From NCBI GenBank assembly GCA_041740515.1, contig JBGSLV010000043.1:27594-91593 (forward strand): a stretch of 64,000 nt of DNA. The letters run 5' to 3'. The notes under the pieces are model-generated. The model was not told the origin of the DNA, did not search any database, and saw only the letters and a list, made by a program, of their open reading frames with translations. Below are positions 455 through 24,564 of this stretch, one piece after another. The translations under genes were made by a program, and so were the position numbers. Numbering within the stretch: the stretch's first letter is position 1; each line of letters opens with the position of its first letter. The stretch is from Bdellovibrionales bacterium. GTDB lineage: Bacteria; Bdellovibrionota; Bdellovibrionia; Bdellovibrionales; UBA1609.

Positions 455-477
455 TTTTTCTCCAATTTCAATTTATT

Positions 478-2752: not shown

Positions 2753-2754
2753 GA

Positions 2755-3354: not shown

Positions 3355-3374
3355 GTGATCGAGGGCCTTAGTTT

Positions 3375-4283: not shown

Positions 4284-4289
4284 TTTATC

Positions 4290-4643
4290 ATGATGCAATC
4301 AACATTCCTCTTTAATATTACCAAAAATAAAAGGATTTCGGATCATGTCGAAATAGCACTGACTTTTGCACAACGTTCAAAAGGACTTTTAGGTCGAAAA
4401 GGTTTAGAACAAAATCAAAGTCTTTGGATTCATCACTGCAACAGTGTTCATACATTTTTTATGCAATTTAGCATTGATGTTTTGTACGTTAACAAAGATT
4501 TGCAAGTGACTAAAATACATCGAGACCTGCAACCCTGGAGACTCAGTTGGGGTGGTTTCGAGTCGCACTCATGCTTTGAATTTCAAGCCCATCAATTAAC
4601 CCATGAAATAAAGATAGGAGACTATTTACGTGTTAGCGCTTAA
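4290..4643 (+). CDS. DUF192 domain protein
   Basis: AQRSKGLLGRK ... CNSVHTFFMQFSIDVLYV pattern typical of DUF192. Lies 6 nt after the tadC-like gene. Confidence 0.7.
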   Translation: MMQSTFLFNITKNKRISDHVEIALTFAQRSKGLLGRKGLEQNQSLWIHHCNSVHTFFMQFSIDVLYVNKDLQVTKIHRDLQPWRLSWGGFESHSCFEFQAHQLTHEIKIGDYLRVSA

Positions 4644-6210: not shown

Positions 6211-7167
6211 ATGAGTAATGTGACCTATAGAAACTCAGACCTAAACCCAAATACTGTGGTACAAAACCACAGTGATAAAAGATTTTTTTTAAAAATCAAT
6301 AAGGGACATGAAAAAGGGGCTGTATTTCAAATCTCTTCGTCAGAAGTTATGATAGGTCGAGATCCTTCTAACCATATTCAACTAAAAAATGATTCAAAAA
6401 TTAGTCGGCACCATGTTAGGCTTATTTTTAAAAATGACCGTTACACAGTACAAGATATCACTAAAAATAATTTTATTTATGTCAATGGCATAAAAGTAAA
6501 ACAATTTGATTTGAAAAATAACGAATTAATCCAAATTGGTGATCATGTCTTACAATTTGTTGAAACAGATATAAACAGCAAAACTAATTCTGCAATGCCA
6601 AATTCAAATCAGGCTCCTCAGAATAACCGATTAAGGCTAATACTTATTCTTATTGTATTAATGGGAAGTGGCTATTATTTCACGACACCAGCTCCGAAGA
6701 TAGATGTTAACACTATTAAAGCTGACGCTTTTGATAATGCGACAAAGAGCGAAAGACGAATAGACAGTATTGAAAATTCAATCAAAGAGTTAGATGAAAA
6801 ATTTAAAGACTCGGTATATTTTACAGAAAATGGTAGGAATGCCCAAGCCATTTTTATTCAAGGTAAACGTGATTTTGATCGTGGCCAATTTTTTTATGCT
6901 CGAGATGCTTTTGGAGCTGTGTTATCCATCGAGCCCTCGCATGCGGAAGCACGCAGACTTTTAAGGCTTTCACAGCAATTTTCAGATGACCTTCTTGAAA
7001 AACAGTTTACCGAAGGTCTTGCTAGCAAAGAGTCTGGTCGTTTTGATTTTTGTAAATCCTCCATGAAAAATATTATGAACTTAATAAACGATCCCGCCAA
7101 CTCTAGGTATCGAGAAGCCAAAAAAATACTGATTGAGTGTGAATTAAAAAAACGAGGTAATTTTTAA
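6211..7167 (+). CDS. FHA-domain protein with one TM span and a helical-repeat extracytoplasmic tail
   Basis: MIGRDPSNHIQL..SRHHVRL..NFIYVNG FHA motifs. TM span LRLILILIVLMGSGYYF. The start codon directly follows the previous stop. Confidence 0.7.
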   Translation: MSNVTYRNSDLNPNTVVQNHSDKRFFLKINKGHEKGAVFQISSSEVMIGRDPSNHIQLKNDSKISRHHVRLIFKNDRYTVQDITKNNFIYVNGIKVKQFDLKNNELIQIGDHVLQFVETDINSKTNSAMPNSNQAPQNNRLRLILILIVLMGSGYYFTTPAPKIDVNTIKADAFDNATKSERRIDSIENSIKELDEKFKDSVYFTENGRNAQAIFIQGKRDFDRGQFFYARDAFGAVLSIEPSHAEARRLLRLSQQFSDDLLEKQFTEGLASKESGRFDFCKSSMKNIMNLINDPANSRYREAKKILIECELKKRGNF

Positions 7168-9062
7168 TGTTTCATTTAAAATGTTTCATCGACGGTGAAC
7201 TTTACAAAGAGCTTAAAATTAATCCTGGGCAAGAGATCATTATCGGTCGAGATGAAACGGCGGATATTGCTTTGGAATCATTCCCCGGTGTTTCAAGACA
7301 ACATATTAAAGTAATACATTTAGGAGATAAACTTTTAGCGGAACGAATGTCCCAAGCTGGCAAATTGATAGTTAATGGCAAAAGTGAAAAGTCGATAGAA
7401 ATTACCGGCCAAGGACAATTTGCTATTCCACCTTATAATTTTGAAGTCTTACAAGAAGTTCAAGAAGTAGAAGTCCAAACGGTAGAGCCTACGGTCAACA
7501 AAGAACCTGAACCCTATATGAGCGAAAAAACCTTTGCCGGTGACTTTGAAAAAACTTCGGTTAGCACCCATGATTTAGCCGCAACTTTCAAAAGAATTGA
7601 ATTTGGAAATATAGTTGATGAATTCAAAATGGATAGTGCCAAATGGACTTTTGGGAGGGCAAAAACCTGCAATGTATTCATTGATCATGACAAAGCTAGT
7701 CGTCAACATTTTGAAGTCTACAAACTTAATAACAAGTTTTTAATTAAAGACCTGGGCAGCTCTAATGGCACATTTCTTAATGGCCATCAGCTTCCAGCAA
7801 ATAATGAAATTGATCTTAAGTCTGGTGATGTGATTTCAATTAACGATTATAAGTTGCTATTTGAAATGAAAGATAATTTTGTTGAAAAACAAATTTATAA
7901 CTTACCAGATTCATATAAACCCGTTGATTTAGAAGATTTTAAATACTCCCAAACTTCTAACAACAGTAATATGGGCGTTGCTAAGGTCAAGTCAGGTTGG
8001 GTAGGTATTTCAGAATGGAGTCTACAAGCAAAAATCAGAGCTGGTATTACCATCGTTTTTATAGCCATGATTACAGGCTTTGCTTTATTCCCTAGTATTA
8101 ATCCTGAGAACAAAGCCTTAGAGCAAAGAGAGCTCGCGGCTTTACGACAAAAAAATGAAGAAAATAAAATTATCGAAAACGCAAAAGTTGCAGCGATTCA
8201 ATACATAGGTGAGGCCCGTTGGTCGTTGTGTATATCTGAAGTTCAAAGAATCCAAGAGCTTCGACCCGACGACCAAGATGCCGCTGAAATAGGGATAAAA
8301 TGTCAAACAGCTTTAGAATCTTTAGAACGTCAAAGCCAAATCGAAGCCCAAGAGCGAGATCGTTTAGCCATAATTGAAAAGGTAAACGCTATTATTGAAG
8401 AGTGTAAAGATAAGGTTAACCAAGGTAGTGCCGTGATTAAGGATTGTCTTCAAGATGCCATTGAACTTGCACCAGAAAATGAAAACATCGCCAAACTTTT
8501 TGACGAGGCCGAGGCCATAGATAGATTGAATGAGGAGAAAAAGCTTAAGCAAGAAAAATATGCTCAAAGATTAAATGCGGGGTTAAGTGTTTTAAAGAAA
8601 GGCGATAGCTTCAAAGATAAACAATATTGGGAAGAAGCCATCAAATGGTATAATACTTTTCTTAAAGGCAATTATCCAGATCCCAAAGGCGAATATAAAC
8701 CAAGAGCTCAGCGTGAAATAGCCTCCATACAATCTGCTTTAGCTAGCACTTTAAAAAAAGCTTTAGATGATGCCAAAGTGCAATTTAATAAAGAAAATTA
8801 CCGCGAAGCCGTGATAGCGGCTCGAAAAGGTTTAAAGATTGATGAGTATCATAAAGAGTTAAGGAAGATTGAAATGGAAGCTTTAGGTATATTAAGAATT
8901 GAAATCCGATCTTTATACCAGGATAGTATTCTTATGGAAGACTTAGGCAAGATTCATACAGCCATTTCAAAATGGAAACAGATTGTTGAACGAGACATAC
9001 CAGGTGAAGAGTACTTTAATAAAGCCGAAAGCAAACTTAAAACTTACGAAACTGAGATCTAA
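7167..9062 (+). CDS. Double-FHA-domain membrane protein with a long coiled-coil/TPR-like tail
   Basis: FHA 1: IIGRDETADIAL..VSRQHIKV. FHA 2: FGRAKTCNVFI..ASRQHFEV..SSNGTFLNGHQL. TM span AGITIVFIAMITGFALF. Overlaps the upstream gene by 1 nt. Confidence 0.75.
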   Translation: MFHLKCFIDGELYKELKINPGQEIIIGRDETADIALESFPGVSRQHIKVIHLGDKLLAERMSQAGKLIVNGKSEKSIEITGQGQFAIPPYNFEVLQEVQEVEVQTVEPTVNKEPEPYMSEKTFAGDFEKTSVSTHDLAATFKRIEFGNIVDEFKMDSAKWTFGRAKTCNVFIDHDKASRQHFEVYKLNNKFLIKDLGSSNGTFLNGHQLPANNEIDLKSGDVISINDYKLLFEMKDNFVEKQIYNLPDSYKPVDLEDFKYSQTSNNSNMGVAKVKSGWVGISEWSLQAKIRAGITIVFIAMITGFALFPSINPENKALEQRELAALRQKNEENKIIENAKVAAIQYIGEARWSLCISEVQRIQELRPDDQDAAEIGIKCQTALESLERQSQIEAQERDRLAIIEKVNAIIEECKDKVNQGSAVIKDCLQDAIELAPENENIAKLFDEAEAIDRLNEEKKLKQEKYAQRLNAGLSVLKKGDSFKDKQYWEEAIKWYNTFLKGNYPDPKGEYKPRAQREIASIQSALASTLKKALDDAKVQFNKENYREAVIAARKGLKIDEYHKELRKIEMEALGILRIEIRSLYQDSILMEDLGKIHTAISKWKQIVERDIPGEEYFNKAESKLKTYETEI

Positions 9063-11501: not shown

Positions 11502-12137
11502 ATGGAAAATTTGGATTTTTTCACGGCACAGTTTTTTGTAGTAGCTCAATTTGGACACAATTTGACTCTTTATATTTTAATAGCGTTAAGTGTAGTAAGT
11601 GTGAGCTTTATTATAGAGCGAATTCTATTTTTTAACAAAATTAAAAAATCGCAAGAGCAATTTAGAAAAGCCTCCAGTGATGCGGTTTACAATAATGATG
11701 TGTCATCACTTAGATCTTTCACTGACATGAACACTGGTTACGAATCTGAAGCTATTAAACTAGGTTTTGGTTATATCAAGGAAGCTGGTACGGAAGGTCT
11801 GCAAGAGTATTTGGACAGTTACAAGCAGAATATCCGACCCACTTTAGATAGATACTTAAGTCCATTAGCATCTATTGGTTCTAACGCTCCTTTTATTGGA
11901 CTTTTAGGAACAGTCTTCGGAGTTATGGAGGCTTTTCAAAGTTTAGCAACTAACCAAAGTGACCCAGGTCTTGTTATGATTGGAATTTCAAAGGCCCTAA
12001 TGGCGACTGCTATAGGACTTTTTGTAGCCATACCTGCAACTTTTGCCTTCAACACATTTAACAAAAAGTCTAAAACGGTATTAAGTCACATCGATACTAT
12101 CCGTGACTTATGTGTCGCTCATAAAAAGAAAATCTAG
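11502..12137 (+). CDS. MotA/TolQ/ExbB proton-channel family protein
   Basis: Three TM spans and the conserved IGSNAPFIGLLGTVFGVMEAF motif. GAGGA 5 nt upstream of the ATG. Confidence 0.8.
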   Translation: MENLDFFTAQFFVVAQFGHNLTLYILIALSVVSVSFIIERILFFNKIKKSQEQFRKASSDAVYNNDVSSLRSFTDMNTGYESEAIKLGFGYIKEAGTEGLQEYLDSYKQNIRPTLDRYLSPLASIGSNAPFIGLLGTVFGVMEAFQSLATNQSDPGLVMIGISKALMATAIGLFVAIPATFAFNTFNKKSKTVLSHIDTIRDLCVAHKKKI

Positions 12138-12185
12138 TGCTGCAACAATTTATTTTTTTTAATAAATTTTTATCCGGGATTTAAA

Positions 12186-12593
12186 ATGGGACAAAGACTA
12201 AAAGATAGCGATGATGATTTAATATCAGATATTAACATTGTACCTTTTGTAGATATTTTACTTGTGATTCTAATTATATTTATGGTAACAGCCCCTGTTG
12301 TTATGCGCCCATCTTTGAAAATTCAACTTCCTGAAGCCTCTACGGGGGATAAATCTGACTTTACACCCTTTCAGCTGACAGTATCTTCAAAAGAAGAAAT
12401 TGTTTTAAATGGGGAACCCGTAGCTTTTGCCAATTTAAAACTTTTAGCAGCTGATTTCATAGCAAAAAACCCTTCAGGCCAAGCTGAAATTTCCGCAGAT
12501 AAAAATGTACCTCACGGGGATGTTATTGCCATCTTAGACCAAATCAAACTTGGTGGCGTCACTAAATTAGGTTTAAGAACTCGAAGTCAGTAA
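12186..12593 (+). CDS. ExbD/TolR biopolymer transport protein
   Basis: INIVPFVDILLVILIIFMV N-terminal motif. Follows the ExbB-like gene. Confidence 0.8.
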   Translation: MGQRLKDSDDDLISDINIVPFVDILLVILIIFMVTAPVVMRPSLKIQLPEASTGDKSDFTPFQLTVSSKEEIVLNGEPVAFANLKLLAADFIAKNPSGQAEISADKNVPHGDVIAILDQIKLGGVTKLGLRTRSQ

Positions 12594-12613: not shown

Positions 12614-13078
12614 TTATTTCCAAAGCGCAAGTTGTGTATCTGAAGGAATTCCATTTGCAAAGTTTGCATTAACATTTATTTTGGTAGCGCCATTTCGACT
12701 AGCAATGACAACAGAATTGTTATCAAATATTTTAAGCTGATTTATAAAATTAAACCCAGGATCAAGATAAAAGTTTGTCCATAATGGTTTTGGAATTTTA
12801 TTATTTTTCAAATATTCAAAAGTATTTTCAATTGGTTTTTCTCCAACAACAATTAAAAAGCTATATTTTTTTGTACTTACAAGCTTAAGGGCATTGTCTA
12901 AACATTTTGTACATGCACTTTTGATATATAAAACATTTTGCTTTGAATTTGAAGTTATCAATTCCACTTTGTTGGTATCTGATACAGATTGCAGCAAATA
13001 CAAAACTTCATTGGCCAACACAAATCGTGTAGACAAAAGAATAACAAAAATAAAAACATAAAACTTAGAAGATGTCAT
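12614..13078 (-). CDS. Secreted thioredoxin-fold (TlpA/redoxin-like) protein with a CxxC motif
   Basis: Signal peptide. VLYIKSACTKCLDNA (CTKC) is followed by a redoxin-like layout (FLIVVGEKP ... KIFDNNSVVIASRNGATKI). It starts 5 nt downstream of the pilin-like ORF. Confidence 0.45.
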   Translation of the reverse strand: MTSSKFYVFIFVILLSTRFVLANEVLYLLQSVSDTNKVELITSNSKQNVLYIKSACTKCLDNALKLVSTKKYSFLIVVGEKPIENTFEYLKNNKIPKPLWTNFYLDPGFNFINQLKIFDNNSVVIASRNGATKINVNANFANGIPSDTQLALWK

Positions 13079-13083
13079 ACATC

Positions 13084-13935
13084 TTAATTACCATACACTG
13101 GCTTAAACATATACACACCGTTTTCAAATTCTCCCACCGACATTAAAGTATCACGCTTATTATTTGGAAATTTTAAAGTAAATATTTTAGTGACTGTTTT
13201 ATAGGGGGAAGTAGTCCCTGGATTACAAATAGTCCCTGCCGTAATATCCCCTGTAGGTCCAAGACAATCAAAGGCGTTACTATTACTCATAGTGGGATAG
13301 ATACTAGTTACCTGCACTCTTATTGAATTTAAAATATTGTTTCTTGAAAATTGGGGCTGATCGATAATTAAATCAGAAATATTATCGAAGATCAGATCAG
13401 TATTGTCAGGAGCTACAACTCCGCTGGCATTGGCAGCCCCGAGGTCTATAACAATTCTAGACCCTCTTCGGGTGTTATCCATAGCTTCATTTTTTCTCAT
13501 GAAAAACACACCTGTTGGCCTGAATTGACTTTGTAGGTTTTCAGGATTGCCCGTTGTTGTTTGCGTCTCTCTGGCAAAAAACATTAGAGTATCACCCGGT
13601 AATGCCCCCAAAGAGGCATCATTGGTATAATTAAAAGTTTTAACAAACCCAGATCCATCAGCGGCTCCTTGTAGTCCATTTAAACTGGGTAGATTCGTAA
13701 AATGAACATTAACAGCTTGGGCCGCAAGCATTTTCCAAGTGTAGATTAAGCGTTCTAAATCTTTTTCGGCATCCGAAATCTTAACCTGCTTCATCCCCAC
13801 AGTTACCATATTTAAGCTGAGTAAAGATGCTGCTAAGAATATGGTGGAAGCAATAACAGCAGTTACTATCAACTCTATCAATGTGAATCCTGCAGATCTT
13901 ATGCTTTTATCCGAGGAAAGATTAGATGGACTCAT
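13084..13935 (-). CDS. Type IV pilin/pseudopilin-like protein (candidate internal start inside the 649-codon ORF)
   Basis: MSPSNLSSDKSIRSAG/FTLIELIVTAVIASTIFLAASLL is a textbook prepilin cleavage/methylation N-terminus. C-terminal Cys pair: FDCLGPTGDITAGTIC. Confidence 0.55.
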   Translation of the reverse strand: MSPSNLSSDKSIRSAGFTLIELIVTAVIASTIFLAASLLSLNMVTVGMKQVKISDAEKDLERLIYTWKMLAAQAVNVHFTNLPSLNGLQGAADGSGFVKTFNYTNDASLGALPGDTLMFFARETQTTTGNPENLQSQFRPTGVFFMRKNEAMDNTRRGSRIVIDLGAANASGVVAPDNTDLIFDNISDLIIDQPQFSRNNILNSIRVQVTSIYPTMSNSNAFDCLGPTGDITAGTICNPGTTSPYKTVTKIFTLKFPNNKRDTLMSVGEFENGVYMFKPVYGN

Positions 13936-15033
13936 GTCTTTTAAGGAGGTTTTTATATCCACATTTTTTAAGGACTGATTATTTAGATTAGGAGTTAATG
14001 GATCTAATACAAATTTATCTTTTATCATAACTTTCTGCTTCTTTAGAAATTTCATAATGTCATTTTTTATTAATCCAAAGGGGTGAAATAAATCATAAAA
14101 ATATGACTTAGGCATACGTCCTTCATGATCATTGATGCCAAACTTATATCTTTCTTTTCTTTGGGGTATATAAAGCGATCCAAGAATTACATCCCAAACT
14201 GAAAAAATAACCCCAAAATTTTTATTAAAATGTATTGAGTTTCGACTGTGATGAACTTGGTGCATATGGGGGCTGATTAAAATATAGCTTATAAATCGGC
14301 CATAATTGATTCGAATATGCGTATGTCGAACATGTTGAATAAAGCTAAAAATAAAATAGGTTATAATTAAAATGGTTAATTTAGTTTCTGAACTTCTACT
14401 GATATTAAAGGCAGTAGATAACATCAATAATCCGGGTATTTGCATAATGGCGATATTTACATATCCGATAATATAGGCCACAGGATGGGTTCTGGATTTT
14501 GTAATCGGACTTAGTACGGTGGCTCTATGATGAGTCATATGAAAGTACCAAATCCATGGAACTTTATGCTCTAAAAAATGAGCCACAAAATTGGTAAAAT
14601 CAATATATAACATTTGCAAAAGTGCATACAGATAAATACCATACACAGGATCTAACATAAAAACGGGCTGTTCAAACCTAAAGTACGAAAAACCTGCATA
14701 GGTGGTAAAAAAGTGTGTAATGTTATTAACGTTTAATAACAAAAAACCAAAATATATGGGTTTATATAAAATCCGCATCGAAAAATATAAACAATCTTTA
14801 ATGAATTCTTTTCGATATCTTTGGGATAAAACAAAAGACTTTATACGTTTTGGGTACGTTTTGGATTTATAAGATTTATAAGCAAAATATAATAACGCCA
14901 CAACCGCGCTGGATAAAAACCAATGGATATTAAATGGGTATTCTTTTTTAAACAGAACACCATTCCCAATATACATAAATTCTTTGTAGGCTAACGACCA
15001 ATAGTTAAGAACCAAATTTATTAGAAACTCCAT
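13084..15033 (-). CDS. Uninterrupted 649-codon ORF: fatty-acid hydroxylase/sterol-desaturase-type membrane enzyme followed in frame by a prepilin-type protein
   Basis: His boxes HFLEH, HMTHH, HVRHTH and HQVHH plus FSVWDVILGSLY in the first ~330 aa. No stop codon before the prepilin N-terminus at codon 367. Confidence 0.6.
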   Translation of the reverse strand: MEFLINLVLNYWSLAYKEFMYIGNGVLFKKEYPFNIHWFLSSAVVALLYFAYKSYKSKTYPKRIKSFVLSQRYRKEFIKDCLYFSMRILYKPIYFGFLLLNVNNITHFFTTYAGFSYFRFEQPVFMLDPVYGIYLYALLQMLYIDFTNFVAHFLEHKVPWIWYFHMTHHRATVLSPITKSRTHPVAYIIGYVNIAIMQIPGLLMLSTAFNISRSSETKLTILIITYFIFSFIQHVRHTHIRINYGRFISYILISPHMHQVHHSRNSIHFNKNFGVIFSVWDVILGSLYIPQRKERYKFGINDHEGRMPKSYFYDLFHPFGLIKNDIMKFLKKQKVMIKDKFVLDPLTPNLNNQSLKNVDIKTSLKDMSPSNLSSDKSIRSAGFTLIELIVTAVIASTIFLAASLLSLNMVTVGMKQVKISDAEKDLERLIYTWKMLAAQAVNVHFTNLPSLNGLQGAADGSGFVKTFNYTNDASLGALPGDTLMFFARETQTTTGNPENLQSQFRPTGVFFMRKNEAMDNTRRGSRIVIDLGAANASGVVAPDNTDLIFDNISDLIIDQPQFSRNNILNSIRVQVTSIYPTMSNSNAFDCLGPTGDITAGTICNPGTTSPYKTVTKIFTLKFPNNKRDTLMSVGEFENGVYMFKPVYGN

Positions 15034-15061
15034 AGGTGTCCTTTTTAACTAAGTGGTCTAG

Positions 15062-16543
15062 TTATGAAGGTCCAACGCCATCATCACCATCTGAACCATC
15101 ATGGTGCCCACCTGCATCCCCACCATCACCGGAGCTGCCATCACCATCACCGTCGCCCCCATCTGAAGGCGGTGGCGGTGGCGGAGGTGTATTGCACTGG
15201 TTGGCCATAGTTCGCCCCCCACCTGGGCACCAACCTCTGGATGGTGGTCGATTGATATAGGGAGCCGTGCAAGTTTCGCAATCTAAAGTGTTTTCCGGGG
15301 GCTGTGGTTCTGAAAGTAAGTAAGAGTTCAAAGTTACATTATGAGCCACATCAACAGCTTTGACTTCGATAGCCATATTGCAACCCAAACTAAGATTTGA
15401 ATAATTTAAATAATATCCATCACTGGCACCAAGAGCGGGATGTGATTCTGCATTCCACGGGTTGTTAGGAGGCTGACCACACAAAGTCACTTGGTTGCAG
15501 TTGACCCAATTGCCAGAGACTGCGAAGTTTTGGCGAGACCCACCACCCACACATTCCGCAGGAGGGGAAGGAAATCCGCCGGCATATATCGAAGCATCTC
15601 GACAAATAAGTGTTATAGCTTTGCCACTTTTTAAATTCGGTGAAACCCTAATATCTGCATTTACACTTCTAGATGTTGCACAGATTGGAATCCCGTCGGG
15701 TATTATGTCTCCGCTGATTAAAGCAGCGTCGTTCACATCATCTGATGGTATTTTTGGGTAATTAAAAGCTGTCGAAACTCGACAATTATGAGCTACGTTT
15801 TGACTGTCCACATAGGAAGTTGTAACGGTCACATAGAACCCTATGTCCGCTCTTGATCCTGGTTCTGGTTGAACTTGATTGCCAAGTAATTGTTGGGCTT
15901 GGGTTAGATTTATATTTAATCCTGCTGGTCTAATAATCAAAGGAATTCCAGGGCAACTTAAACTGCCATTGGTTAAATCAATAGCTTGGATTCTAATGCT
16001 TGTACTTACATTTCTTAAATGCCCGACAACACGGTTCTCGGATAAACTAGCGGCGGCTGCGCCTGAGTACACAATACCAATAGGACTATTACAGTAGTTA
16101 CCGTTACTGTTATACAATGAATTTAATAACGACATTGAACCGATAAGAGCTTTATGATTTTTTAAAATCAAAGCCGGTCCAACATTAGTCCATAACTGAG
16201 CATTGGCATTCAACCAATCTTCAGATAGAGCAATAAAATTTAAAGTATCTTCACTGCCACCTGTTGGTCGGGTCATTACATTGCCTGTAACATTTAAATT
16301 ATTGACAGACTTAACAATACCTACTGACTTAATTCTATCCATTACGTCTTGTGAGGTTTGGCTACACACTTTAAAGTGCGAGTTTTGAATCTGTGACATT
16401 CTAGCCGTACTAAAATAGCCAAAAAGAACTATAACGCCAGACAAAAGAGCTATAGCTACAACTGATTCCGCTATAGAAAATCCATTTATATTATTAGTGA
16501 TACTAATTTTATTTAACGTATTAGTTTTATTAAAATATCTCAT
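15062..16543 (-). CDS. Large Cys-rich pilin-like secreted protein with a poly-Pro and Gly/Asp/His-rich tail
   Basis: N-terminus NNING/FSIAESVVAIALLSGVIVLF is prepilin-like (G-F-S-I-x-E). Many Cys residues. The C-terminus is PPPPPPPSDGGDGDGDGSSGDGGDAGGHHDGSDGDDG. Confidence 0.55.
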   Translation of the reverse strand: MRYFNKTNTLNKISITNNINGFSIAESVVAIALLSGVIVLFGYFSTARMSQIQNSHFKVCSQTSQDVMDRIKSVGIVKSVNNLNVTGNVMTRPTGGSEDTLNFIALSEDWLNANAQLWTNVGPALILKNHKALIGSMSLLNSLYNSNGNYCNSPIGIVYSGAAAASLSENRVVGHLRNVSTSIRIQAIDLTNGSLSCPGIPLIIRPAGLNINLTQAQQLLGNQVQPEPGSRADIGFYVTVTTSYVDSQNVAHNCRVSTAFNYPKIPSDDVNDAALISGDIIPDGIPICATSRSVNADIRVSPNLKSGKAITLICRDASIYAGGFPSPPAECVGGGSRQNFAVSGNWVNCNQVTLCGQPPNNPWNAESHPALGASDGYYLNYSNLSLGCNMAIEVKAVDVAHNVTLNSYLLSEPQPPENTLDCETCTAPYINRPPSRGWCPGGGRTMANQCNTPPPPPPPSDGGDGDGDGSSGDGGDAGGHHDGSDGDDGVGPS

Positions 16544-16588
16544 ATTAATATCTTCTCATAGATTTGACTTTTGTCTACACGTCATAAA

Positions 16589-16604
16589 GCAGACTAATGT
16601 CTGC
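16589..16604 (-). terminator. Short hairpin between two pilin-cluster genes (possible attenuator or weak terminator)
   Basis: On the minus strand: GCAGAC-ATTA-GTCTGC followed by TTTAT. The stem is only 6 bp. Confidence 0.25.
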
Positions 16605-16636
16605 AAATCATAAAGTAGAGATTTTACGAGTAAGAT

Positions 16637-17410
16637 TTAATAGTGTCTTACGGCAAAAGTCTGGGTTATTTTTTGTTTACCGGTACAATTAGGCGAACCA
16701 TTTACACAAAATGATACATTAAAACACTCTGTATGATTTGTCTGACAGTTAACGAAATCAGTAACTCCATTACCACCAAAGTTAGGCGGGATTATAACAC
16801 GAGCTCCTGGAACGGTTTGACTTAAGCCAGCAGCAACAATAGGCGTTGTGTTGGGTTTGGCAACATAAACACCTTTAGTATAGCTACGCATTGGTACATA
16901 ACTTAGAGCACCCGTTTGATTAAATGTCGATCTATCAACAGCTGCTTCAAGAGGATTCAAGGGAGCAATTTCTGGTTCGGGAGCAGGACCAGGAGTAAAA
17001 AATTCTTCATCAACCACACCACCAAAAGCATTGGCTTTAGAAACAATTAAAGCTAATGGATTTACTTTGTGATTTATAAAAGCTAAAGACTGGGCGTTGG
17101 CTAAACAAATTTTATTACCACGCATTTGATCTGGACTAAAACATCTATTAGCATCTAAACCGGTCCAACAGAGTTTAAAAATATTTGGATTTAGGCCAAT
17201 CTCAACACTAGTTCCAGGGCAGCCTGCACTCTGTTGCCCCAAATCGTATGCGATTCTTACAACGGGTGCAATGGACAGTGCTAGCTCGGTTTTTTCGTAC
17301 ATCTCGCGATTTAATACATCAGATTTAACTTTTGCTTCGTAAGTTGTATTTATATTTGAAATAATCAAAGTATTTAACATTAAAATTCCAAGTACGAACA
17401 AAATTTGCAT
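16637..17410 (-). CDS. Membrane-anchored or secreted Cys-rich hypothetical protein, first gene of the pilin-like cluster
   Basis: Start placed at ATG 17410 (MQILFVLGILMLNTLIIS), with AGAGGA 5 nt upstream. Hydrophobic N-terminus. Cys-rich motifs CPGT, CWTG, NRC, ICLAN, and CQTNHTECFNVSFCVNGSPNC. Confidence 0.5.
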   Translation of the reverse strand: MQILFVLGILMLNTLIISNINTTYEAKVKSDVLNREMYEKTELALSIAPVVRIAYDLGQQSAGCPGTSVEIGLNPNIFKLCWTGLDANRCFSPDQMRGNKICLANAQSLAFINHKVNPLALIVSKANAFGGVVDEEFFTPGPAPEPEIAPLNPLEAAVDRSTFNQTGALSYVPMRSYTKGVYVAKPNTTPIVAAGLSQTVPGARVIIPPNFGGNGVTDFVNCQTNHTECFNVSFCVNGSPNCTGKQKITQTFAVRHY

Positions 17411-17673
17411 AAATTCCTCTTTGGTTAAAATCAAATATTTTTCATATTATCTTTTCGTCTAATTTAAGAGTTTTGATAAAATTTTAAACGATACAATGTA
17501 TTAATTTGAAACAGATGGTTTAGAAATAAAAAAAAAGCCCTTAAATTAATACTTAAATATGAATAAAAATAACAAGTTAACTGTTTTACCAATATTGTTA
17601 CAAGAATGTTTCAAGATCCAGTTTATTTTCAAGCCTGGATTTCCAAGTTGAAGTCTTTCAATAAGTCGACACT

Positions 17674-18954
17674 TTAAGGTCTAAGCAAAATGATAGGAGA
17701 TTTTTTGTTTAAAGCAATTATCAAATATTTCTTATCTACTCCCACTTGGCTGGATAAACCTTCATTAAATGAATATTTTTTTAATAATTTGAAACTCACA
17801 AAATCATAAATACAAACATCAGTTTTCGCACAAGGAGTGGCGACATATTTTTTACTCTTGTATTTTAGGATGACTGGGCTGGCTCTTTTTGTCTCTTTAC
17901 TCATGCTTAATTCATGAAAAGCAAGCCTTTGGCCTGTCTTCAAATCAATTTTATGCACACCAGTTTGATCATTTATAAATCCAAATGACAATTTTTGATC
18001 TATCGCCGGACTACTTTGATTAAATTCACTAAGCTTATATTGCCAATTTATAAGACCATTAGCTTTTTTCAAACTGTATAAATGACCATCCCATGAACTG
18101 ATGTAAATGTTTTCGTTATCCATGGCTGGCGTAGATTTAATAGGGCCGGCTAATTTTATTTCCCACATGATAGTTCCTGTAGTTTTGGACATAGCTTGAA
18201 ATTTATTATCATTGTCACCAAAATACAAATTTTCATTATCAACAGCCGGTGAAGAATGACTGTGATTACCAATGGGATTGCTGGCCCACACAAGAGACGT
18301 ATCCGATAAATTAATTTTCCCAATATAACCATTAGGATGTAAGGTTTCGACATTGTAATAAAGATAATGCGATTCTAACCAAGGGGTAGCTCCAAAAGAG
18401 TTGCCTAATTGTGCCATCCAAATAATTTTCTTCGCTTCAAGATTCAGAAGATATAGCCGCCCGGAGTATTCACCGATGATAGCGTAATCATTAAAAACAA
18501 TTGGCGTTCCATGAAACCCAAGATTTGAATTATATAGATGTAAAGACCAATGAAGTTTTTCTTGTTTAAAGACTTGAATGAGTCCCTGATCACCAGCCGA
18601 TACCATGAACTTACCATTACTTACGGGCGTAGATTTACTAGCACCATGCCCCCCATGATTAACAATAGTGTCATTCAGCATTTCAGATTTTAAGCTGAGG
18701 GGATCAAAATCAATCTCGTAGAAGCCTGTTCGATCAGCATCATTTCGATATTGAACGGAGGAATCCTTTAATCCCTTAATAAGGTTAGTATCTTTATTTA
18801 TTATAAAAAAATTGGGTTTAATAAAAACGAAACTTCGATAACTGTAGATTCCATAATTATAGAGTGTTGGATTTAAAAAAAATAAAATGAGTAGGGTTAA
18901 AAAAAGGGTACTAAAAGTATAGAAATAAAAAAACTTAAAGCTCTTTACAAACAT
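17674..18954 (-). CDS. PQQ-like (BamB-type) beta-propeller repeat protein with an N-terminal membrane anchor
   Basis: Repeated units such as ENLYFGDNDNKFQAMSKTTGTIMWEIKL and ENIYISSWDGHLYSLKKANGLINWQYKL. Confidence 0.7.
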   Translation of the reverse strand: MFVKSFKFFYFYTFSTLFLTLLILFFLNPTLYNYGIYSYRSFVFIKPNFFIINKDTNLIKGLKDSSVQYRNDADRTGFYEIDFDPLSLKSEMLNDTIVNHGGHGASKSTPVSNGKFMVSAGDQGLIQVFKQEKLHWSLHLYNSNLGFHGTPIVFNDYAIIGEYSGRLYLLNLEAKKIIWMAQLGNSFGATPWLESHYLYYNVETLHPNGYIGKINLSDTSLVWASNPIGNHSHSSPAVDNENLYFGDNDNKFQAMSKTTGTIMWEIKLAGPIKSTPAMDNENIYISSWDGHLYSLKKANGLINWQYKLSEFNQSSPAIDQKLSFGFINDQTGVHKIDLKTGQRLAFHELSMSKETKRASPVILKYKSKKYVATPCAKTDVCIYDFVSFKLLKKYSFNEGLSSQVGVDKKYLIIALNKKSPIILLRP

Positions 18955-20113
18955 TGTTGTAAGTCCTTACAAGAGTATATTCTTTATCTGTTGTTCGTGC
19001 TGACTCTAAGTAAAACAAAAACTTAGAGTTTGGATTTTTCTGACATAATCTTTGAAGAAATGTATCATAAACTATTGCGTCACAATGAATTCTAAGGAAA
19101 TTTACTATTTTGGGAATATTTAAAGCTACTATGCTTCCATCCGATTTTTCCTCAAGTAATGTATGTTGGCATTTAAGCTTAGAATCTAACATATTTAAGG
19201 TTTCATATCTTATATTTCCATCCATGGATGGATCTATTCCATAAAATTTGCTTGAAATATTCCAAACAATCATAAGCATTATAAAAAATATCGAAGCTCG
19301 TCGCCTAAAATTACTGTTGCCGAACTGCAGATCATTCAGAGTTGTAAAAGAATATTTTAATAATCCTGAATCATCATTTGTAAATTCATTAATAACAATA
19401 GGTAACAAAAGACCCATCATTATTAATGGATAATAAAACCCAACAATTAAAACTGAATACAAATGGAATATAATCAACTGTAATAAAGTAACTCGTCTTA
19501 AAAGGACGTTTTGAGATAGCAAACCCCAGATTAAAATAAGTTCTAGTACAGGGACATAAGCCAAACTTAATGTATGCCAAAAGCCGCTCAGCATGTAAGT
19601 GCTATAACTAACCAATGCGGCACCAGACAGCCACTCGATATTAAGTTTTAAAAGTCCTGCAAATACATATTGTAAAATTAGACCCAGTCGATAAAAATGA
19701 AAGGAACCCAAAGAAAGTATCGTTAAAATACTTAAACTTAAATGCATGGTATGGTAATTACCCATGAAATTATATCTTGATAAAAGGACTAATACTTTAA
19801 AAAAAGTAAGGGAATAAAAAATTAGCATATAAATCTTGGTTTTATCAAAAAGGACTAAAAACAGACCGATGACGCAAAAAAGAGCGTAAATATAAAAAAT
19901 ACTTTGAACATAAAATAAATTTTCAAAAGCTAATTCAAAGCAATTTCTAAAAACTGGAACACAGGCTACTTCATAATTTTCATTTGCAAATCTTAACCAA
20001 ACCTTACCTTTCAACCAGTATATCGCAGTTATAAAATGTGCAAAAAGAAGCCCAAAATAAATTGCCTTTTTTAAATAGTTCATTTTATAAGAATTAAAAG
20101 TTTGAAAGTTCAT
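18935..20113 (-). CDS. Polytopic membrane protein, possibly HTTM/VKGC-like, with a small C-terminal soluble domain
   Basis: About 8 hydrophobic spans. The NFMGNYHTMHLSLSILTIL segment is reminiscent of the HTTM N-x-Y-x-L region. The family call is weak. Alternative start at 20083. Confidence 0.4.
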   Translation of the reverse strand: MNFQTFNSYKMNYLKKAIYFGLLFAHFITAIYWLKGKVWLRFANENYEVACVPVFRNCFELAFENLFYVQSIFYIYALFCVIGLFLVLFDKTKIYMLIFYSLTFFKVLVLLSRYNFMGNYHTMHLSLSILTILSLGSFHFYRLGLILQYVFAGLLKLNIEWLSGAALVSYSTYMLSGFWHTLSLAYVPVLELILIWGLLSQNVLLRRVTLLQLIIFHLYSVLIVGFYYPLIMMGLLLPIVINEFTNDDSGLLKYSFTTLNDLQFGNSNFRRRASIFFIMLMIVWNISSKFYGIDPSMDGNIRYETLNMLDSKLKCQHTLLEEKSDGSIVALNIPKIVNFLRIHCDAIVYDTFLQRLCQKNPNSKFLFYLESARTTDKEYTLVRTYNNVCKEL

Positions 20114-20489
20114 ATTTGATTGTATTTTTAAATATTACATTTTTAAGGTTACATGTATTTATATTAGTAAAACTTAGATCTGAATCCAAAAAAATTACAG
20201 TATTCAAACTACAATTGCTAAAGTAGGCCCCTTGAAGTGAAGCTCCTTTTAAGACTGTATTTTCGATATTTAGACCATTAAACTTGACGGCTTCAGCTTT
20301 GAGACCAACAATTTCTGAATTTATAATCTTTAGATTTTGGATTTTTTTAGTCTTTAAATACAAAATGAATACATTGACCGAATCTAAAATTTGATCATTT
20401 TCTGCAATTGAGATCTTGTCATAAGTCTTATTGGGGTCCAAACCATAAATGTTTGAAAATAGTAAGTAGCTAGCCACTATAAGTATCAT
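20094..20489 (-). CDS. Secreted pentapeptide-repeat protein
   Basis: LKGASLQGAYFSNCSLNTVIFLDSDLSFTNINTCNLKNVIF. Start moved to ATG 20489 (MILIVASYLLFSNIYG signal-like). Confidence 0.7.
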   Translation of the reverse strand: MILIVASYLLFSNIYGLDPNKTYDKISIAENDQILDSVNVFILYLKTKKIQNLKIINSEIVGLKAEAVKFNGLNIENTVLKGASLQGAYFSNCSLNTVIFLDSDLSFTNINTCNLKNVIFKNTIKYELSNF

Positions 20490-20645
20490 AGTAAAATGAT
20501 AGATTTTAACATCGATTATGCAAGTTAAATAAAATCTTAGTTTTAAATTAACAACAGGCTTGAGTCGGTAGTTAAGTGTAAAAACTAGTATGGAGTCATA
20601 ATATATCAATTAAATTGTAGTAACAACGACTTGATCTGACAGCTA

Positions 20646-20751: not shown

Positions 20752-22077
20752 TTAAAAAAAACTACCTATAGACTTGGCACTAAAGACCTGCTTTTGAAAT
20801 ATATATTTATCAGGATCTATATTTGATTTGTTTAAAGTTAGAATTAAGTCACTGATTGATTCTGGAACAAGTAACACATTAGAAAAACCAAATCTTACAA
20901 GGGTTTTATAAACATTGATCGATTTGTTGGGGTCAAGCATATGATGTCCAACAAGATATAATTTATCGTCTTTGGAAATCTTATCTAGTCCAGTTAACAT
21001 ATAGTTGCCAGTAACTTTATTTTCCTTAACTAGTCTATTATATGACTCTTGAGTATAAGTTCTTAAATAGTACTGTTTAAATCCCTCAACAGAAAGCTTT
21101 TCAGGATAAAGTGGAATAGAGTTTTTAAAATGTATAGTCTCAAATGCATCTGGATCGGAGACATCAATAATTTTAAATTTGTCATTGGACTTAAGACTAG
21201 TCAGTAATTGCTCTTGGGATGCAATTTTAGTTCGTTTAAAGACCTCAGCCATTGTTTTTTCTTTATTATTAACCCATTTTTTATCTGCGTCTTTAAACCA
21301 ATATACATTCTTCGCATTTTTTGTATAAAGTTTACTGATCAAATTATAGCCTTTGAAAGTATTTTTATATGTTGAGAACACAACGATATCGTTATTATTT
21401 AATGGTGTTTTCAAATTCGTATCAAAAAGTAAGTCTAAAAGATTAAATTTAGTATCTTTAGGTAAAATATCATTTGCGATTATGGCTTTTGGGAAAAAAT
21501 ATCCGTCCTGATCAGAAAAGGTATAAAATTCAACATTACTCTTGGCGTAGAATTGAATCAGCTGTTTATAATCTATAACTTTGGCATTCCAATGATTTTT
21601 GGGAAAAAGGTTTGGATTCCAAAGTGTCTTAACTTTACTATTTATAAGTTCACCGACTATAAATTGGATTTTTTTATCTTTTTCATTCAAAAGTTTAGAA
21701 TTGTAAATTCCGAAGATAAAATCAGTAAGTAGATAGGGATTCGTTATTTTCTTTACAGTTTCGTGAAAAGTCCTAATCAAATTATTAGGTTCATTAGATT
21801 TTATAGTGATATCATTGTAATAATAAAATTTGCTCATTTTAAATTTTAAAACACCAAATTCTTTACCTTCTAAATTTAAGACTTTAAAATCCTTGGTTAT
21901 CGCACAGATTGAACTCGGCAAAGGAATAATCTTTGATCCATTTTGACTAAAGTAAAAATTAATAAGCTCATCCGGCCATTTTAAATCACTCAAAACTGTA
22001 CAAGCTTCCGCTTTATTTGCGAAAACAAAAAATGTCATGGTGAGTAAAAATATAACATAGTTGCATTTGGATTTCAT
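20752..22077 (-). CDS. Secreted hypothetical protein, possibly with two degenerate rhodanese-homology domains
   Basis: Signal peptide. KIIDVSDPDAFETIHFKNSIPL ... LYLVGHHMLDPNKS..LVRFGFSNVLLV resembles a rhodanese layout without the catalytic Cys. A similar unit lies upstream (VVFSTYKN..NAKNVYWFKD). Confidence 0.35.
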   Translation of the reverse strand: MKSKCNYVIFLLTMTFFVFANKAEACTVLSDLKWPDELINFYFSQNGSKIIPLPSSICAITKDFKVLNLEGKEFGVLKFKMSKFYYYNDITIKSNEPNNLIRTFHETVKKITNPYLLTDFIFGIYNSKLLNEKDKKIQFIVGELINSKVKTLWNPNLFPKNHWNAKVIDYKQLIQFYAKSNVEFYTFSDQDGYFFPKAIIANDILPKDTKFNLLDLLFDTNLKTPLNNNDIVVFSTYKNTFKGYNLISKLYTKNAKNVYWFKDADKKWVNNKEKTMAEVFKRTKIASQEQLLTSLKSNDKFKIIDVSDPDAFETIHFKNSIPLYPEKLSVEGFKQYYLRTYTQESYNRLVKENKVTGNYMLTGLDKISKDDKLYLVGHHMLDPNKSINVYKTLVRFGFSNVLLVPESISDLILTLNKSNIDPDKYIFQKQVFSAKSIGSFF

Positions 22078-22413: not shown

Positions 22414-22923
22414 TTAATTTCCAGAGTTATTTTTAACGCTTGCTTTCCCGACATTAGCGCCCTCTGTGTATTGTAAATCAACATTATCAAATTGAAGTGT
22501 GAAATTTTCGGTTAAACGCTCTTCGCCACCCGATCCACCGCTTGCTACAGATGTGATCAGAACTTTATTCATTGTGAATTTTATGGTCATTGCATTTTCG
22601 ACTTCAAGAACAACTTTTGAAATTTTTGTTTTCTGGCTTAGTAATTTAATAATCTCAGCTGATTCTGGACCAACAAATTTAGTAAATGACATATCTTGAA
22701 CTTTTAAATCTCTTGATTGCTTTGATTCCGAATCTTCTGAAATATTACTAACTCCCCAACTCCAAGCTAAAATCTCGACTGGTTTTTGCAAATTGGTAAC
22801 ATTCATGGATTTGTCCGTTTCAAAAGAAAGTTTCATTTTTGTACCTCTTCGAGGTGAACTCTCTTGACCAGCTAATGTAAAACAAAAGGTAAAAGTAATA
22901 AGGAATATAAATATATTTTTCAT
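22414..22923 (-). CDS. Hcp-family (type VI secretion tube protein) homologue with an apparent N-terminal signal peptide
   Basis: Blocks VEILAWSWGVSN, LKVQDMSFTKF and ITSVASGGSGGEERLTENFTLQF match Hcp1 hallmark blocks as I recall them. MKNIFIFLITFTFCFTLAGQ precedes the Hcp core. Alternative leaderless start at 22836. Confidence 0.8.
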   Translation of the reverse strand: MKNIFIFLITFTFCFTLAGQESSPRRGTKMKLSFETDKSMNVTNLQKPVEILAWSWGVSNISEDSESKQSRDLKVQDMSFTKFVGPESAEIIKLLSQKTKISKVVLEVENAMTIKFTMNKVLITSVASGGSGGEERLTENFTLQFDNVDLQYTEGANVGKASVKNNSGN

Positions 22924-23112: not shown

Positions 23113-24564
23113 TTACCAACGACAGCTGTTTATGTTATCCGCATTTGCAATAAAACTGTAATTATAAGTTTTATAAAAGAACCAACTTTTTTTAGGACCA
23201 AGGAATTGCTTTATATTCAAATTGGTCAATTTATGTATTTCACCACTTTCAGATTTTACAATAAGATTAAAATTTTGTAGCTTATCTAACTTACGTGCCC
23301 TTTCATAGGCAAGATCAAGTCCTGATTTAGTAATCCAGTCCGATGTTTGTCTAACTTCCGTAAAAATAGATTCGTCATAAGAGCTAAGTACTTGGTAAAG
23401 CTCGCTCTCGTATCCAAATAAATCAATTTTTTTCATAAAAAAATGATTATTGTAGGAACCCGCAAACTTAAGATTTGAGAACATGGTGAAGTTCCCTGCC
23501 GAACGATAGCCAAAATAGATAGAAGTGCTAAATAAACAAAGCAAAATTAATGGTCCTAATTTAAGAGTATCAATTGATGAAAAATTTAAATACCTTTCGA
23601 AAGAATGCCTTTTAATTATATGCTTACTACTCAAATAAATCAGATTCATCGTAATAACGATAAGGATTAATCCTTGTAAAGACTGCAAGGTCTGTTTGAT
23701 TTCTGGAAACACATAAGCACCTATCAAACTTATACCAATAAGGACATAAGAGCTTATAAAATGCAGATAAATAATTTTAATCCAAACATCGAAACTAGAA
23801 ATAACAAGAGGCAAAAATAGAAATAATAAAGCCATAGCCAATGATGAAAAGTCTGCAAACCCACCAAGGGCCAAATAGGAATGCAAAAAGAGCAACATAA
23901 GTAGACCATAGTTTCTATATCGTTTCATCAATAACAAGGTGGGTGCCAATAGTTCCAGTGCACCTACAATTTTGGGGGAAATACTTTTAATAAATACAGG
24001 TATATCATTTAAGTCGATATTATTAAAAAACCGACTAAAAAGCTTTAAGTGGTACCAAGTGGTGCAAGATTTATCAGGATTATAAAAATCAACATTCATT
24101 TTATGCAAAGCAGCGCTATAGTATAAAATGACCAATGCACTTAACAAAAAAATTTTATTTTCAAAAAGATTAAGGTAAATATTTTCATATTTTATAAAAT
24201 TCACAAAATAGAATACAAAAATTAAAAAAAGCAAAAATGTATTAAAATTAGTATGATTGGCCCCATAGGGCCAATGATTAATTATATGAAATAACAGTAA
24301 AGAACAGAAAAAAATAAATAATAGGTTGATATAAAAAAAGAATCTATTAGAACTCTCTATGTGACAGTTTTTTATGGCTTTAAAAAATCGATACGCCAAA
24401 TAATGAAAAGCTAAAAGAAAAACAAATAATACTTTCTCTGCATAGTCGTTTTGGAAGTACTCAAAAAAATGATAAACTTGTGCGGTAACGTAAGACAGAA
24501 TAAAGCCTAAGTCATAAATATTAGACTTTATTGGGATGGCTTTTCTGTTCAAACATAAAGTCAA
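23113..24564 (-). CDS. Polytopic membrane protein, possibly HTTM/VKGC-like, with a C-terminal soluble domain
   Basis: More than 8 hydrophobic spans. WPYGANHTNFNTFLLFLIF and AGNFTMFSNLKFAGSYNNHFF segments. The family call is weak. Confidence 0.4.
   Translation of the reverse strand: MTLCLNRKAIPIKSNIYDLGFILSYVTAQVYHFFEYFQNDYAEKVLFVFLLAFHYLAYRFFKAIKNCHIESSNRFFFYINLLFIFFCSLLLFHIINHWPYGANHTNFNTFLLFLIFVFYFVNFIKYENIYLNLFENKIFLLSALVILYYSAALHKMNVDFYNPDKSCTTWYHLKLFSRFFNNIDLNDIPVFIKSISPKIVGALELLAPTLLLMKRYRNYGLLMLLFLHSYLALGGFADFSSLAMALLFLFLPLVISSFDVWIKIIYLHFISSYVLIGISLIGAYVFPEIKQTLQSLQGLILIVITMNLIYLSSKHIIKRHSFERYLNFSSIDTLKLGPLILLCLFSTSIYFGYRSAGNFTMFSNLKFAGSYNNHFFMKKIDLFGYESELYQVLSSYDESIFTEVRQTSDWITKSGLDLAYERARKLDKLQNFNLIVKSESGEIHKLTNLNIKQFLGPKKSWFFYKTYNYSFIANADNINSCRW

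Follow-up and report, generated by a model that had tools for sequence, protein, structure and literature searches.

A conserved hydroxylase-prepilin fusion within an orphan, lineage-restricted cluster of pilin-like genes in Bdellovibrionales

Type IV filaments owe their function largely to tips that are built from minor pilins. A subunit without Glu5 caps such tip complexes (PMC10191384). In Myxococcus xanthus, separately encoded trimers of disulfide-rich minor pilins act as interchangeable tips of the Kil pilus, and tip complexes in predatory bacteria decide prey range (PMC12075869). Here we describe a set of pilin-like genes in a 64,000 nt stretch of DNA from a Bdellovibrionales bacterium (GCA_041740515.1, contig JBGSLV010000043.1, forward strand 27,594-91,593), which we refer to as the window and in whose coordinates (1 to 64,000) all positions are given. 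The set consists of four co-directional minus-strand open reading frames (ORFs) at 12614-17434 that encode a Cys-rich anchored protein of 257 amino acids (aa), a large prepilin-type protein of 493 aa, a 649-aa fusion of a hydroxylase to a prepilin, and an exported 154-aa protein with a CxxC motif. What is most unusual about this locus is the conserved enzyme-prepilin fusion together with an orphan three-gene pilin family.

The arrangement is reminiscent of the minor pilins of type IVa pili (T4aP) with PilY1 (FimU-PilVWX-PilY1 and PilHIJK-PilC) and of GspH-I-J-K of type II secretion systems (T2SS), where clustered prepilins are likewise encoded apart from the assembly genes. Additional likenesses are the N_methyl signal, the presence of one Glu5-less member and an adjacent beta-propeller, and the family of the fusion's pilin aligns best with PpdB and GspJ over helix alpha1. 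In contrast to these tips, however, there are three members rather than four, and the Glu5-less member has neither a leader nor Gly-1. Furthermore, the globular domains match no PilV/W/X, FimU or GspH-K model of Pfam or NCBIfam, the propeller is a 426-aa protein of PQQ/BamB type and not PilY1, and a hydroxylase and a CxxC protein are attached. The Kil tips (KilL/M/N; Herrou et al. 2025, PMC12075869) also form stand-alone three-gene clusters of a predatory lineage that are encoded away from the machinery, with one large member, many predicted disulfides and distal domains that are sequence orphans. Unlike the present set, the Kil proteins are homologues of TadE/F/G of the Tad (T4c) pilus, whereas the motifs described here are of the GFxxxE/N_methyl type with no TadE match. 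Modular type IV pilins such as PilB and PilC of S. sanguinis join a pilin to an unrelated module in one polypeptide (PMC8179133, PMC10191384), but the known grafts are C-terminal and stay with the mature pilin, whereas here the enzyme lies N-terminal of the predicted cut, in effect as a membrane leader of ~380 aa, and would be parted from the pilin. Lastly, the hydroxylase shares with the FA_hydroxylase/sterol desaturase superfamily, to which the ornithine-lipid hydroxylase OlsE belongs, an above-threshold match to PF04116 and the His boxes, but it is not an OlsE equivalog and is either joined to a prepilin in one protein or coupled to one in translation. Membership of the set in PilVWX/GspHIJK or in TadEFG fails at the sequence level and, by analogy, it plausibly works like them.

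The hydroxylase-prepilin fusion and its pilin family

A six-frame scan of the 64 kb for the prepilin motif (G-[F..]-[ST]-x-x-E with a hydrophobic stretch after it) returned exactly two sites, both of which lie in this cluster. The four ORFs are separated by intergenic gaps of 93, 28 and 5 nt, and the Cys content of the 257-aa protein (3.1%) and of the 493-aa protein (2.8%) compares with a median of 1.1% for 62 ORFs of the window. Taken together, the motif scan, the Pfam and NCBIfam matches given below and the excess of Cys indicate that these sequence features are real and not the product of chance. An earlier note on this DNA had pointed to the four consecutive minus-strand genes, the 5-nt gap, the prepilin motif and the abundance of Cys, all of which are indeed present, and the motif and the Cys are conserved.

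The fusion (13084-15033) begins with a polytopic FA_hydroxylase membrane domain that spans residues 1 to ~330 (14044..15033). PF04116 matches at residues 138-285 with an E value of 7e-19 and 69 bits against a gathering cutoff of 31, and the HxxxxH/HxxHH/HxxHH boxes of the di-iron type are conserved, with H152, H156, H165, H168, H169, H237, H239, H258, H261 and H262 invariant in 8 orthologues. With the NCBIfam model for the OlsE equivalog it scores 60 bits against a cutoff of 475. The enzyme is followed by a variable Lys/Arg-rich linker (13888..14043) ending in ...KSIRSAG, of which the last residue is G382. The remainder is a pilin-type domain of 267 aa (13084..13887) that starts with FTLIELIV, includes a C590-C603 pair and runs to the stop codon. 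Of the models for the type IV pilin class III signal (PF07963, TIGR02532, IPR012902), PF07963 (N_methyl) matches the fusion at residues 379-402 and TIGR02532 of NCBIfam at residues 381-402. The predicted prepilin-peptidase cut is located after G382, between 13888 and 13887, and S380-A381-G382, L385 and E387 are invariant in the 8 fusion orthologues. Thus, the motif (RSAG|FTLIEL) has the form of a class III signal but does not occupy an N-terminal position, as it begins at residue 382.

Full-length fusions occur in 8 protein clusters that are 51-80% identical and derive from independent samples (NCBI, ENA, JGI and Logan). The loci that encode them belong to metagenome-assembled genomes (MAGs) labelled Bdellovibrionales or Pseudobdellovibrionaceae, which agrees with the predator-like lineage that the earlier note had supposed, and a narrow-alignment metagenome scan added one partial locus only. 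Across the orthologues the linker is 31-54 aa long, poorly conserved and of net positive charge, with in-frame indels, and it is always open. These sequences argue for selection on the fused reading frame. We rejected Met367 as an internal translation start for the pilin half, since the orthologues do not keep this residue and no Shine-Dalgarno sequence precedes it; dual expression of the pilin half may occur in orthologue P0007. A full-text literature search found no paper that describes a hydroxylase-prepilin fusion.

The pilin half belongs to a larger family of at least 65 proteins. A HMMER profile of this half recovered 65 representatives at E<=1e-3 from a search of 1.84 billion representatives. 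Nearly all members are stand-alone proteins of 260-300 aa (~275) that have a short basic leader followed by G-[FMY]-[TS]-L-x-E, and 26 of 32 members have an N_methyl match and no other domain. When the family profile was searched against the PDB at E<=1e-3, the only matches were to alpha1N of type IV pilins (Geopilin 3e-5, PilA 2e-4). Comparison with E. coli proteins by hhalign gave 95% probability for the minor pilin PpdB over columns 13-60, and 94.8% for GspJ over columns 11-78, in both cases within alpha1 only. PpdB is what we take to be the E. coli counterpart of PilW. Given this family membership and the restriction of all matches to alpha1, the pilin half therefore represents an unannotated prepilin family with a head that has no detectable relatives.

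There are also genomes in which hydroxylase and pilin are separate genes. On a 404-kb contig (L019) the order is a 493-type gene, a 257-type gene, a 341-aa FA_hydroxylase, a 281-aa prepilin and a 152-aa CxxC protein, and the hydroxylase gene overlaps by 13 nt the start of the pilin gene, the ATG of which has GGAGG upstream. A second locus (L018) is split in the same manner; there the two genes overlap by 17 nt, and the ribosome-binding site reads AAGGAAG. Both split orthologues, P0025 and P0026, have short N-terminal leaders of 13-14 aa. Neighbour-joining gives the P0026 lineage, which is split, as the outgroup to the fused clade, and P0025 branches without a resolved order at the base of that clade. 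To judge from these sequences, the simplest history is that the fusion arose by joining two translationally coupled genes. The CxxC gene always lies directly after the hydroxylase/pilin gene, fused or split, and the hydroxylase-pilin-CxxC sub-module is a conserved association. The 13-17 nt overlaps of the relatives' genes lie beside an A-run, where one indel would be enough to merge the two, and the fusion could in principle be a frameshift artefact of assembly or sequencing. This explanation is refuted by the eight independent clusters with their varying linkers, all of which are open and in frame, and we give it practically no weight; the hydroxylase-prepilin ORF of the earlier note is thus a real gene.

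Other fusions were seen among relatives of the two halves. Member P0081 of the pilin family (514 aa, L020:1505-3049) has a GT2-like glycosyltransferase domain ahead of a same-family prepilin (ESG|YTIVELLV), and its gene adjoins another GT2 gene. By its domain make-up it is a second, independent enzyme-prepilin fusion. Relatives of the hydroxylase (P0009, P0010 and P0012) are fused at their C-termini to creatininase-like, periplasmic substrate-binding and imelysin-like domains, the last of which is preceded by an apparent internal lipoprotein signal (..VLASGC). It seems that hydroxylases of this subfamily readily become joined to exported proteins.

The Cys-rich proteins, the core trio and the CxxC protein

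The 493-aa protein (15062..16543) has a 21-aa leader that ends ...NING|FSIAESVVAIALL, and the predicted cut is after G21 (G21|FSIAES). It thus has the short N-terminal leader ending in Gly, the hydrophobic stretch and the Glu at +5 of a class III signal. In 10 orthologues that are 33-75% identical, G21, F22, S23, E26 and S27 are invariant, as are 13 of the 14 Cys; the remaining one, C197, is kept in at least 90%. One orthologue carries the JGI annotation of a PulG-like pseudopilin. The 493-aa family aligns with the ~275-aa pilin family by hhalign at 95% probability over the leader and alpha1N only. At the C-terminus (15062-15200, minus strand) the protein has a poly-Pro segment and then an acidic, Asp/Gly-rich tail (DGDGDG..GGD..GGHHDGSDGDDG), the Asp/Gly positions of which are invariant in the 10 orthologues. 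We guess that this tail might bind Ca2+ or another metal. A plus-strand ORF at 15036-15260 is the mere mirror image of the G/C-rich tail stretch of this gene. Additionally, contig L019 has at 1-8997 two near-identical 493-type copies without N-termini that are interleaved with DDE transposase genes, and a fragment with the missing N-terminus (MMINKKLNGFSLIEVMVS...) sits apart at 8800-8997. This looks like duplication and disruption of a large pilin gene by insertion sequences.

The longest ORF for the Cys-rich protein is 16637-17434, but the start that orthologues share is the ATG at 17410, which has an AGAGGA ribosome-binding site upstream and gives a protein of 257 aa. This protein begins with a leaderless N-terminal hydrophobic anchor helix (MQILFVLGILML...) that has no Gly-1 and no Glu5. 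All 5 orthologues start with MQIxFV, and all 8 Cys are invariant. No similarity was found when the family was compared with both prepilin families. The three proteins share nothing past the leader and alpha1N, and these are shared only between the 493-aa and ~275-aa families.

The three genes are found together beyond the window's clade. On L023, a contig of 52% GC from a different lineage, the trio is adjacent without the hydroxylase and without the CxxC protein. Its 447-aa prepilin corresponds to the 493-aa protein (hhalign 99%, 359 columns, E 6.5e-18), its middle-type member is the family pilin P0041, and its third member is a 462-aa Cys-rich protein with a weak match to the 257-aa family (E 1.3e-3) that has the motif AY[DE].GQQ...C. 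A 257-type gene (HMM E 6e-9) also directly precedes a pilin gene in L022, and a 257-type homologue adjoins the pilin gene in L019. As the trio recurs across lineages, L023 included, its members (the large prepilin, the ~275-aa prepilin and the Cys-rich anchored protein) are inherited together. Around this core, the propeller described below and the hydroxylase/CxxC pair recur as accessories. The distant 257-type homologue of L023 (10840-12225) has a leader-like N-terminus (...NERG|SVLILVVVLMG) and a Gly-rich C-terminal extension of ~200 aa with a weak Gly_rich_2 match. The comparison of N-termini suggests that the leaderless MQI start of the window's clade is derived. A PilX_N/Tad-type N-terminus was also considered for the 257-aa family, as ...ERGSVLILVVVLMG of L023 resembles one by eye, and was rejected as it has no Pfam support.

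The 154-aa gene (12614..13078) starts 5 nt past the fusion stop. Its product has a CTKC motif (C56 and C59), an invariant CxxC in 6 orthologues, after an N-terminal signal-like segment. The earlier note had called it a TlpA/redoxin-like secreted protein; the signal and the CxxC hold, but the family label is not supported, since no thioredoxin-family similarity could be detected in Pfam (6 orthologues, even at E<=10), in NCBIfam or in a PDB profile search. Comparison of the CxxC family with the DCC1-like and DsbA-like proteins of the window by hhalign likewise gave a probability of <1%. By eye, the alignment reads strand-CxxC-helix-strand, with no conserved Pro before the putative beta3, which is the expected cis-Pro site. 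The window has a DCC1-like thiol-disulfide oxidoreductase gene at 38-454 and a DsbA/Thioredoxin_4-like gene at 33637-34416, both on the minus strand, so the organism possesses a conventional machinery for disulfides that does not depend on the 154-aa protein. The idea that this protein handles the disulfides of its neighbours is weakened, and a dedicated role of this kind is doubtful, because the CxxC protein tracks the hydroxylase and not the Cys-rich proteins, being absent beside the L023 trio.

Assembly genes, the wider module and its neighbours

The earlier note had also remarked that no PilB/PilC/PilD/PilQ or GspE/F/D genes are adjacent, and, a lone T2SSF gene apart, this extends to the whole of the 64 kb and to the surroundings of the locus in four other genomes. 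A Pfam search of ORFs of at least 120 aa in the window found none of PilB/C/D/Q or GspD/E/F/O save for a lone T2SSF gene at 3375-4283, and a tblastn search of the 64 kb with E. coli GspC/D/E/F/G/L/M/O found none. T2SSE, T2SSF, secretin and A24 peptidase genes were also not found within ~10 kb of the locus in the four other genomes.

The conserved module is larger than the four genes and comprises ~9 genes from 12614 to ~24564. Its order is the 483-aa protein, (the 441-aa protein), the pentapeptide-repeat protein, the 392-aa protein, the 426-aa propeller, the 257-aa protein, the 493-aa protein, the fusion and the 154-aa protein, the 441-aa protein having orthologues in L005 and L016 only. This order is syntenic in L005, L016 and L017, and in L006 the 257-type gene is found upstream instead. 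The L004 contig ends ~200 bp upstream of the 493-type gene and covers the last three genes only. The flanks of the module differ in every genome. A scan of 12-25 kb for sigma-70 promoters and terminators gave counts at the level of shuffled sequence and no operon boundaries.

The other genes of the module lie upstream of the trio and are likewise all on the minus strand. The first of them is the gene for an N-terminally anchored beta-propeller of PQQ/BamB type (17674..18954, 426 aa; PQQ_2 E 2e-20), which is syntenic in 5 loci. Its PDB matches are to BamB and PQQ-like propellers, and it matches PQQ_2, BamB and ACSF4-type models only, not the C-terminal propeller of PilY1 (PF05567), so that any analogy with PilY1 is one of genomic position. 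In L021 the C-terminus of a 392-type protein and then a propeller gene lie directly upstream of a stand-alone family pilin. The next gene (18935..20113) encodes a multi-pass membrane protein of 392 aa and overlaps both neighbours by 20 nt. It is followed by a pentapeptide-repeat gene (20094..20609; Pentapeptide E 5e-8), which is syntenic in 5 loci and for which the called gene is probably shorter, at ~131 aa, than the longest ORF. The gene at 20752..22077 encodes an exported protein of 441 aa, the C-terminus of which weakly resembles rhodanese (E 2.7e-4, slightly below the cutoff). A multi-pass membrane protein of 483 aa (23113..24564), syntenic in L005, L006, L016 and L017, forms the upstream end of the module. 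For the 392-aa and 483-aa proteins no match was obtained in Pfam, NCBIfam or the PDB, and sequence and profile searches of the PDB with the 154-, 493-, 257-, 392- and 483-aa families and the hydroxylase domain returned nothing or low-complexity noise. The 392-aa protein has an invariant QYFFAGLLKLNxEWxSG, and the 483-aa protein a similar YxSAALHKxNxDF; a comparison of the two by hhalign was not significant (E 0.08). These motifs recall an HTTM/vitamin-K-carboxylase-like domain, for which the Pfam, NCBIfam and PDB profile searches gave no match.

Several neighbouring genes deserve mention. Between the 441-aa and 483-aa genes, at 22414-22923 (minus strand), is a 169-aa Hcp-like protein (PF05638, E 3e-12) with a signal-peptide-like N-terminus. 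The corresponding gap of L005 has no Hcp-like gene, and an exported Hcp-like protein without nearby genes for a type VI secretion system (T6SS) is odd. An ExbB/ExbD pair (11502-12593, plus strand) converges on the module end, with 20 nt between the ExbD and 154-aa stops, and as a neighbour is specific to the window's lineage. Further away on the plus strand, the region 3375-9062 holds the lone single-domain T2SSF gene (302 aa), a DUF192 gene and three FHA-domain proteins. The T2SSF gene has weak UpsF/BasF-like matches, has no ATPase, secretin or peptidase beside it and is not syntenic with the pilin module elsewhere. Possibly this region is a fragment of some envelope system, Tad/Kil-like or other.

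Readings of the module

Our best reading, which we put forward with moderate confidence, is that the locus is an orphan, lineage-restricted minor-pilin-type module that most likely serves a pilus with assembly genes located elsewhere in the genome. Its core is formed by the disulfide-rich 493-aa prepilin, a prepilin of ~270 aa and the Cys-rich protein, which is anchored by a pilin-like N-terminal helix and has no leader or Glu5. A prepilin peptidase encoded elsewhere would cut the 493-aa protein behind G21 and the 649-aa protein behind G382, and the mature subunits would join via their alpha1N helices into a low-abundance priming or tip complex of a T4aP or of a T2SS-like pseudopilus, with the PQQ-type propeller as a possible non-pilin partner. 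The middle pilin gene of this clade has become joined to the upstream FA-hydroxylase gene, so that the leader of the pilin is now a 380-aa membrane enzyme. The positive-inside rule predicts a cytoplasmic location for the His boxes and the Lys-rich linker, and prepilin peptidases cut on the cytoplasmic side (PMC10191384). With the linker placed where the peptidase acts, cleavage at G382 would give the two products that the split genomes encode separately. The earlier note had likewise proposed a minor-pilin or tip-adhesin module for a pilus that is encoded at another locus; the prepilin nature and the orphan status of the genes bear this out, but the claim of a prey adhesin is unsupported, and a role in prey attachment is speculation from the lineage. 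That note had also tied the pilin reading to conservation of the motifs in orthologues and to structural similarity beyond the hydrophobic N-termini. The GFxxxE motifs are invariant, and this test therefore leaves the pilin reading standing, although alpha1 is the only part that could be aligned by hhalign.

A number of observations weigh against this reading. The 257-aa protein has no prepilin motif at all and does not carry a class III signal, and our full-text literature search did not find a description of such a signal at residue 382 of a polytopic protein. Neither a prepilin peptidase nor a major pilin nor an assembly ATPase is seen in the sequence examined. The globular domains match no PilV/W/X, FimU, GspH-K or TadE/F/G model of Pfam or NCBIfam, in which the only matches are of N_methyl type together with sub-threshold N-terminal ones to GspH, ComGD, ComGE and HpsC. 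No member of the set has a TadE/Tad Pfam match, the motifs being of the GFxxxE N_methyl type, and in hhalign comparisons with E. coli PpdA/B/C, YgdB and GspG-K no alignment was longer than 68 columns or reached past alpha1. Models computed with AlphaFold2 had a pLDDT of 42.4 for the 493-aa protein (10-sequence alignment) and of 37.8 for the pilin half (8-sequence alignment) and provide no evidence at the level of the fold. In both models the low-confidence secondary structure is a helix of ~50 residues followed by beta strands, an order that would suit the lollipop fold of type IV pilins, in which a long alpha1 helix packs on a head of antiparallel beta-sheet. Foldseek searches of the PDB with them gave no match at E<=0.001 and are uninformative because of the low confidence of the models. 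Furthermore, the fusion of hydroxylase relatives to periplasmic domains that are not pilins is compatible, on sequence grounds, with a tethered arrangement that is never cleaved.

This last point belongs to a different explanation, which we regard as unlikely, that the genes encode an inner-membrane and periplasmic envelope complex. GFxxxE would then be a mere N-in/C-out anchor that leaves the hydroxylase covalently tethered to its periplasmic pilin-like domain, and the CxxC protein, the propeller and the two multi-pass membrane proteins would be parts of a lipid- or envelope-modifying machine. Such a complex would suit a module that is dominated by membrane and periplasmic proteins of no known function and that has no assembly genes near it, a CxxC protein that co-occurs with the hydroxylase and not with the Cys-rich proteins, and a hydroxylase subfamily that is fused via a transmembrane or signal segment to substrate-binding, imelysin-like and creatininase-like domains. 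However, Gly-1 and Glu5 are strictly invariant, as expected for cleavage and docking rather than for anchoring, and in the split genomes the pilin looks like any ordinary prepilin, with a short basic leader and a ribosome-binding site of its own. Moreover, the L023 trio does without the hydroxylase, and N_methyl is matched by 26/32 members of the family.

Less probable again is that the proteins are pseudopilins of a T2SS-like device for secretion or export and not the tip of a surface pilus. They would then prime a short pseudopilus in the periplasm, which would drive out specific cargo, for instance predation enzymes. The N_methyl motif is that of T2SS/T4aP, GspJ is the best single-sequence hhalign match after PpdB, one orthologue is labelled PulG-like by JGI, and weak N-terminal NCBIfam matches are to GspH and HpsC, all of which would be in keeping with such a device. 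These matches are confined to alpha1, however, there is no GspC/D/E/F/L/M in the window, and a subunit that has 14 Cys, an acidic tail and a length of ~470 aa is large for a pseudopilin and would seem more like an exposed adhesin-type minor pilin. The view that comes closest to the earlier note, that of a prey-attachment tip adhesin complex for which the CxxC protein serves as a dedicated TlpA-like oxidoreductase that forms the disulfides, appears to us quite improbable. The Bdellovibrionales/Pseudobdellovibrionaceae lineage, the numerous, even-numbered and conserved Cys and the invariant CxxC after a signal peptide speak for it, and the tips of Myxococcus are disulfide-rich (PMC12075869). Against these stand the lack of detectable thioredoxin-family similarity and, as judged by eye, of a conserved Pro at the expected cis-Pro site, the L023 trio without a CxxC protein, and the DsbA-like gene at 33637-34416.

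Enzyme-led prepilins could represent a functional design and not a neutral joining of genes, with a polytopic membrane enzyme made as the leader of a minor pilin, the FA-hydroxylase here and the GT2-like glycosyltransferase in P0081. An enzyme made in this manner would be delivered 1:1 to the site of the peptidase and of assembly, where it would modify the pilin (for example alpha1N) or lipid, while the peptidase would act as a polyprotein-maturation protease and the CxxC protein would be part of the pathway. We offer this only as a tentative proposal that is much more likely to be wrong than right.

In Bdellovibrio-like bacteria and beyond, the cluster defines a family of three pilin-like proteins that are inherited together, had not been annotated before and are orphans in sequence. 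The class III signal lies 380 residues inside a membrane enzyme, and its cleavage, if it occurs, would extend the range of prepilin-peptidase substrates and link lipid hydroxylation to pili. Alternatively, if the fusion is not cleaved, GFxxxE would have been reused as a plain anchor, which would matter wherever genomes are annotated by this motif. Whichever holds, the cluster offers genetic work in the Bdellovibrionota a concrete candidate.

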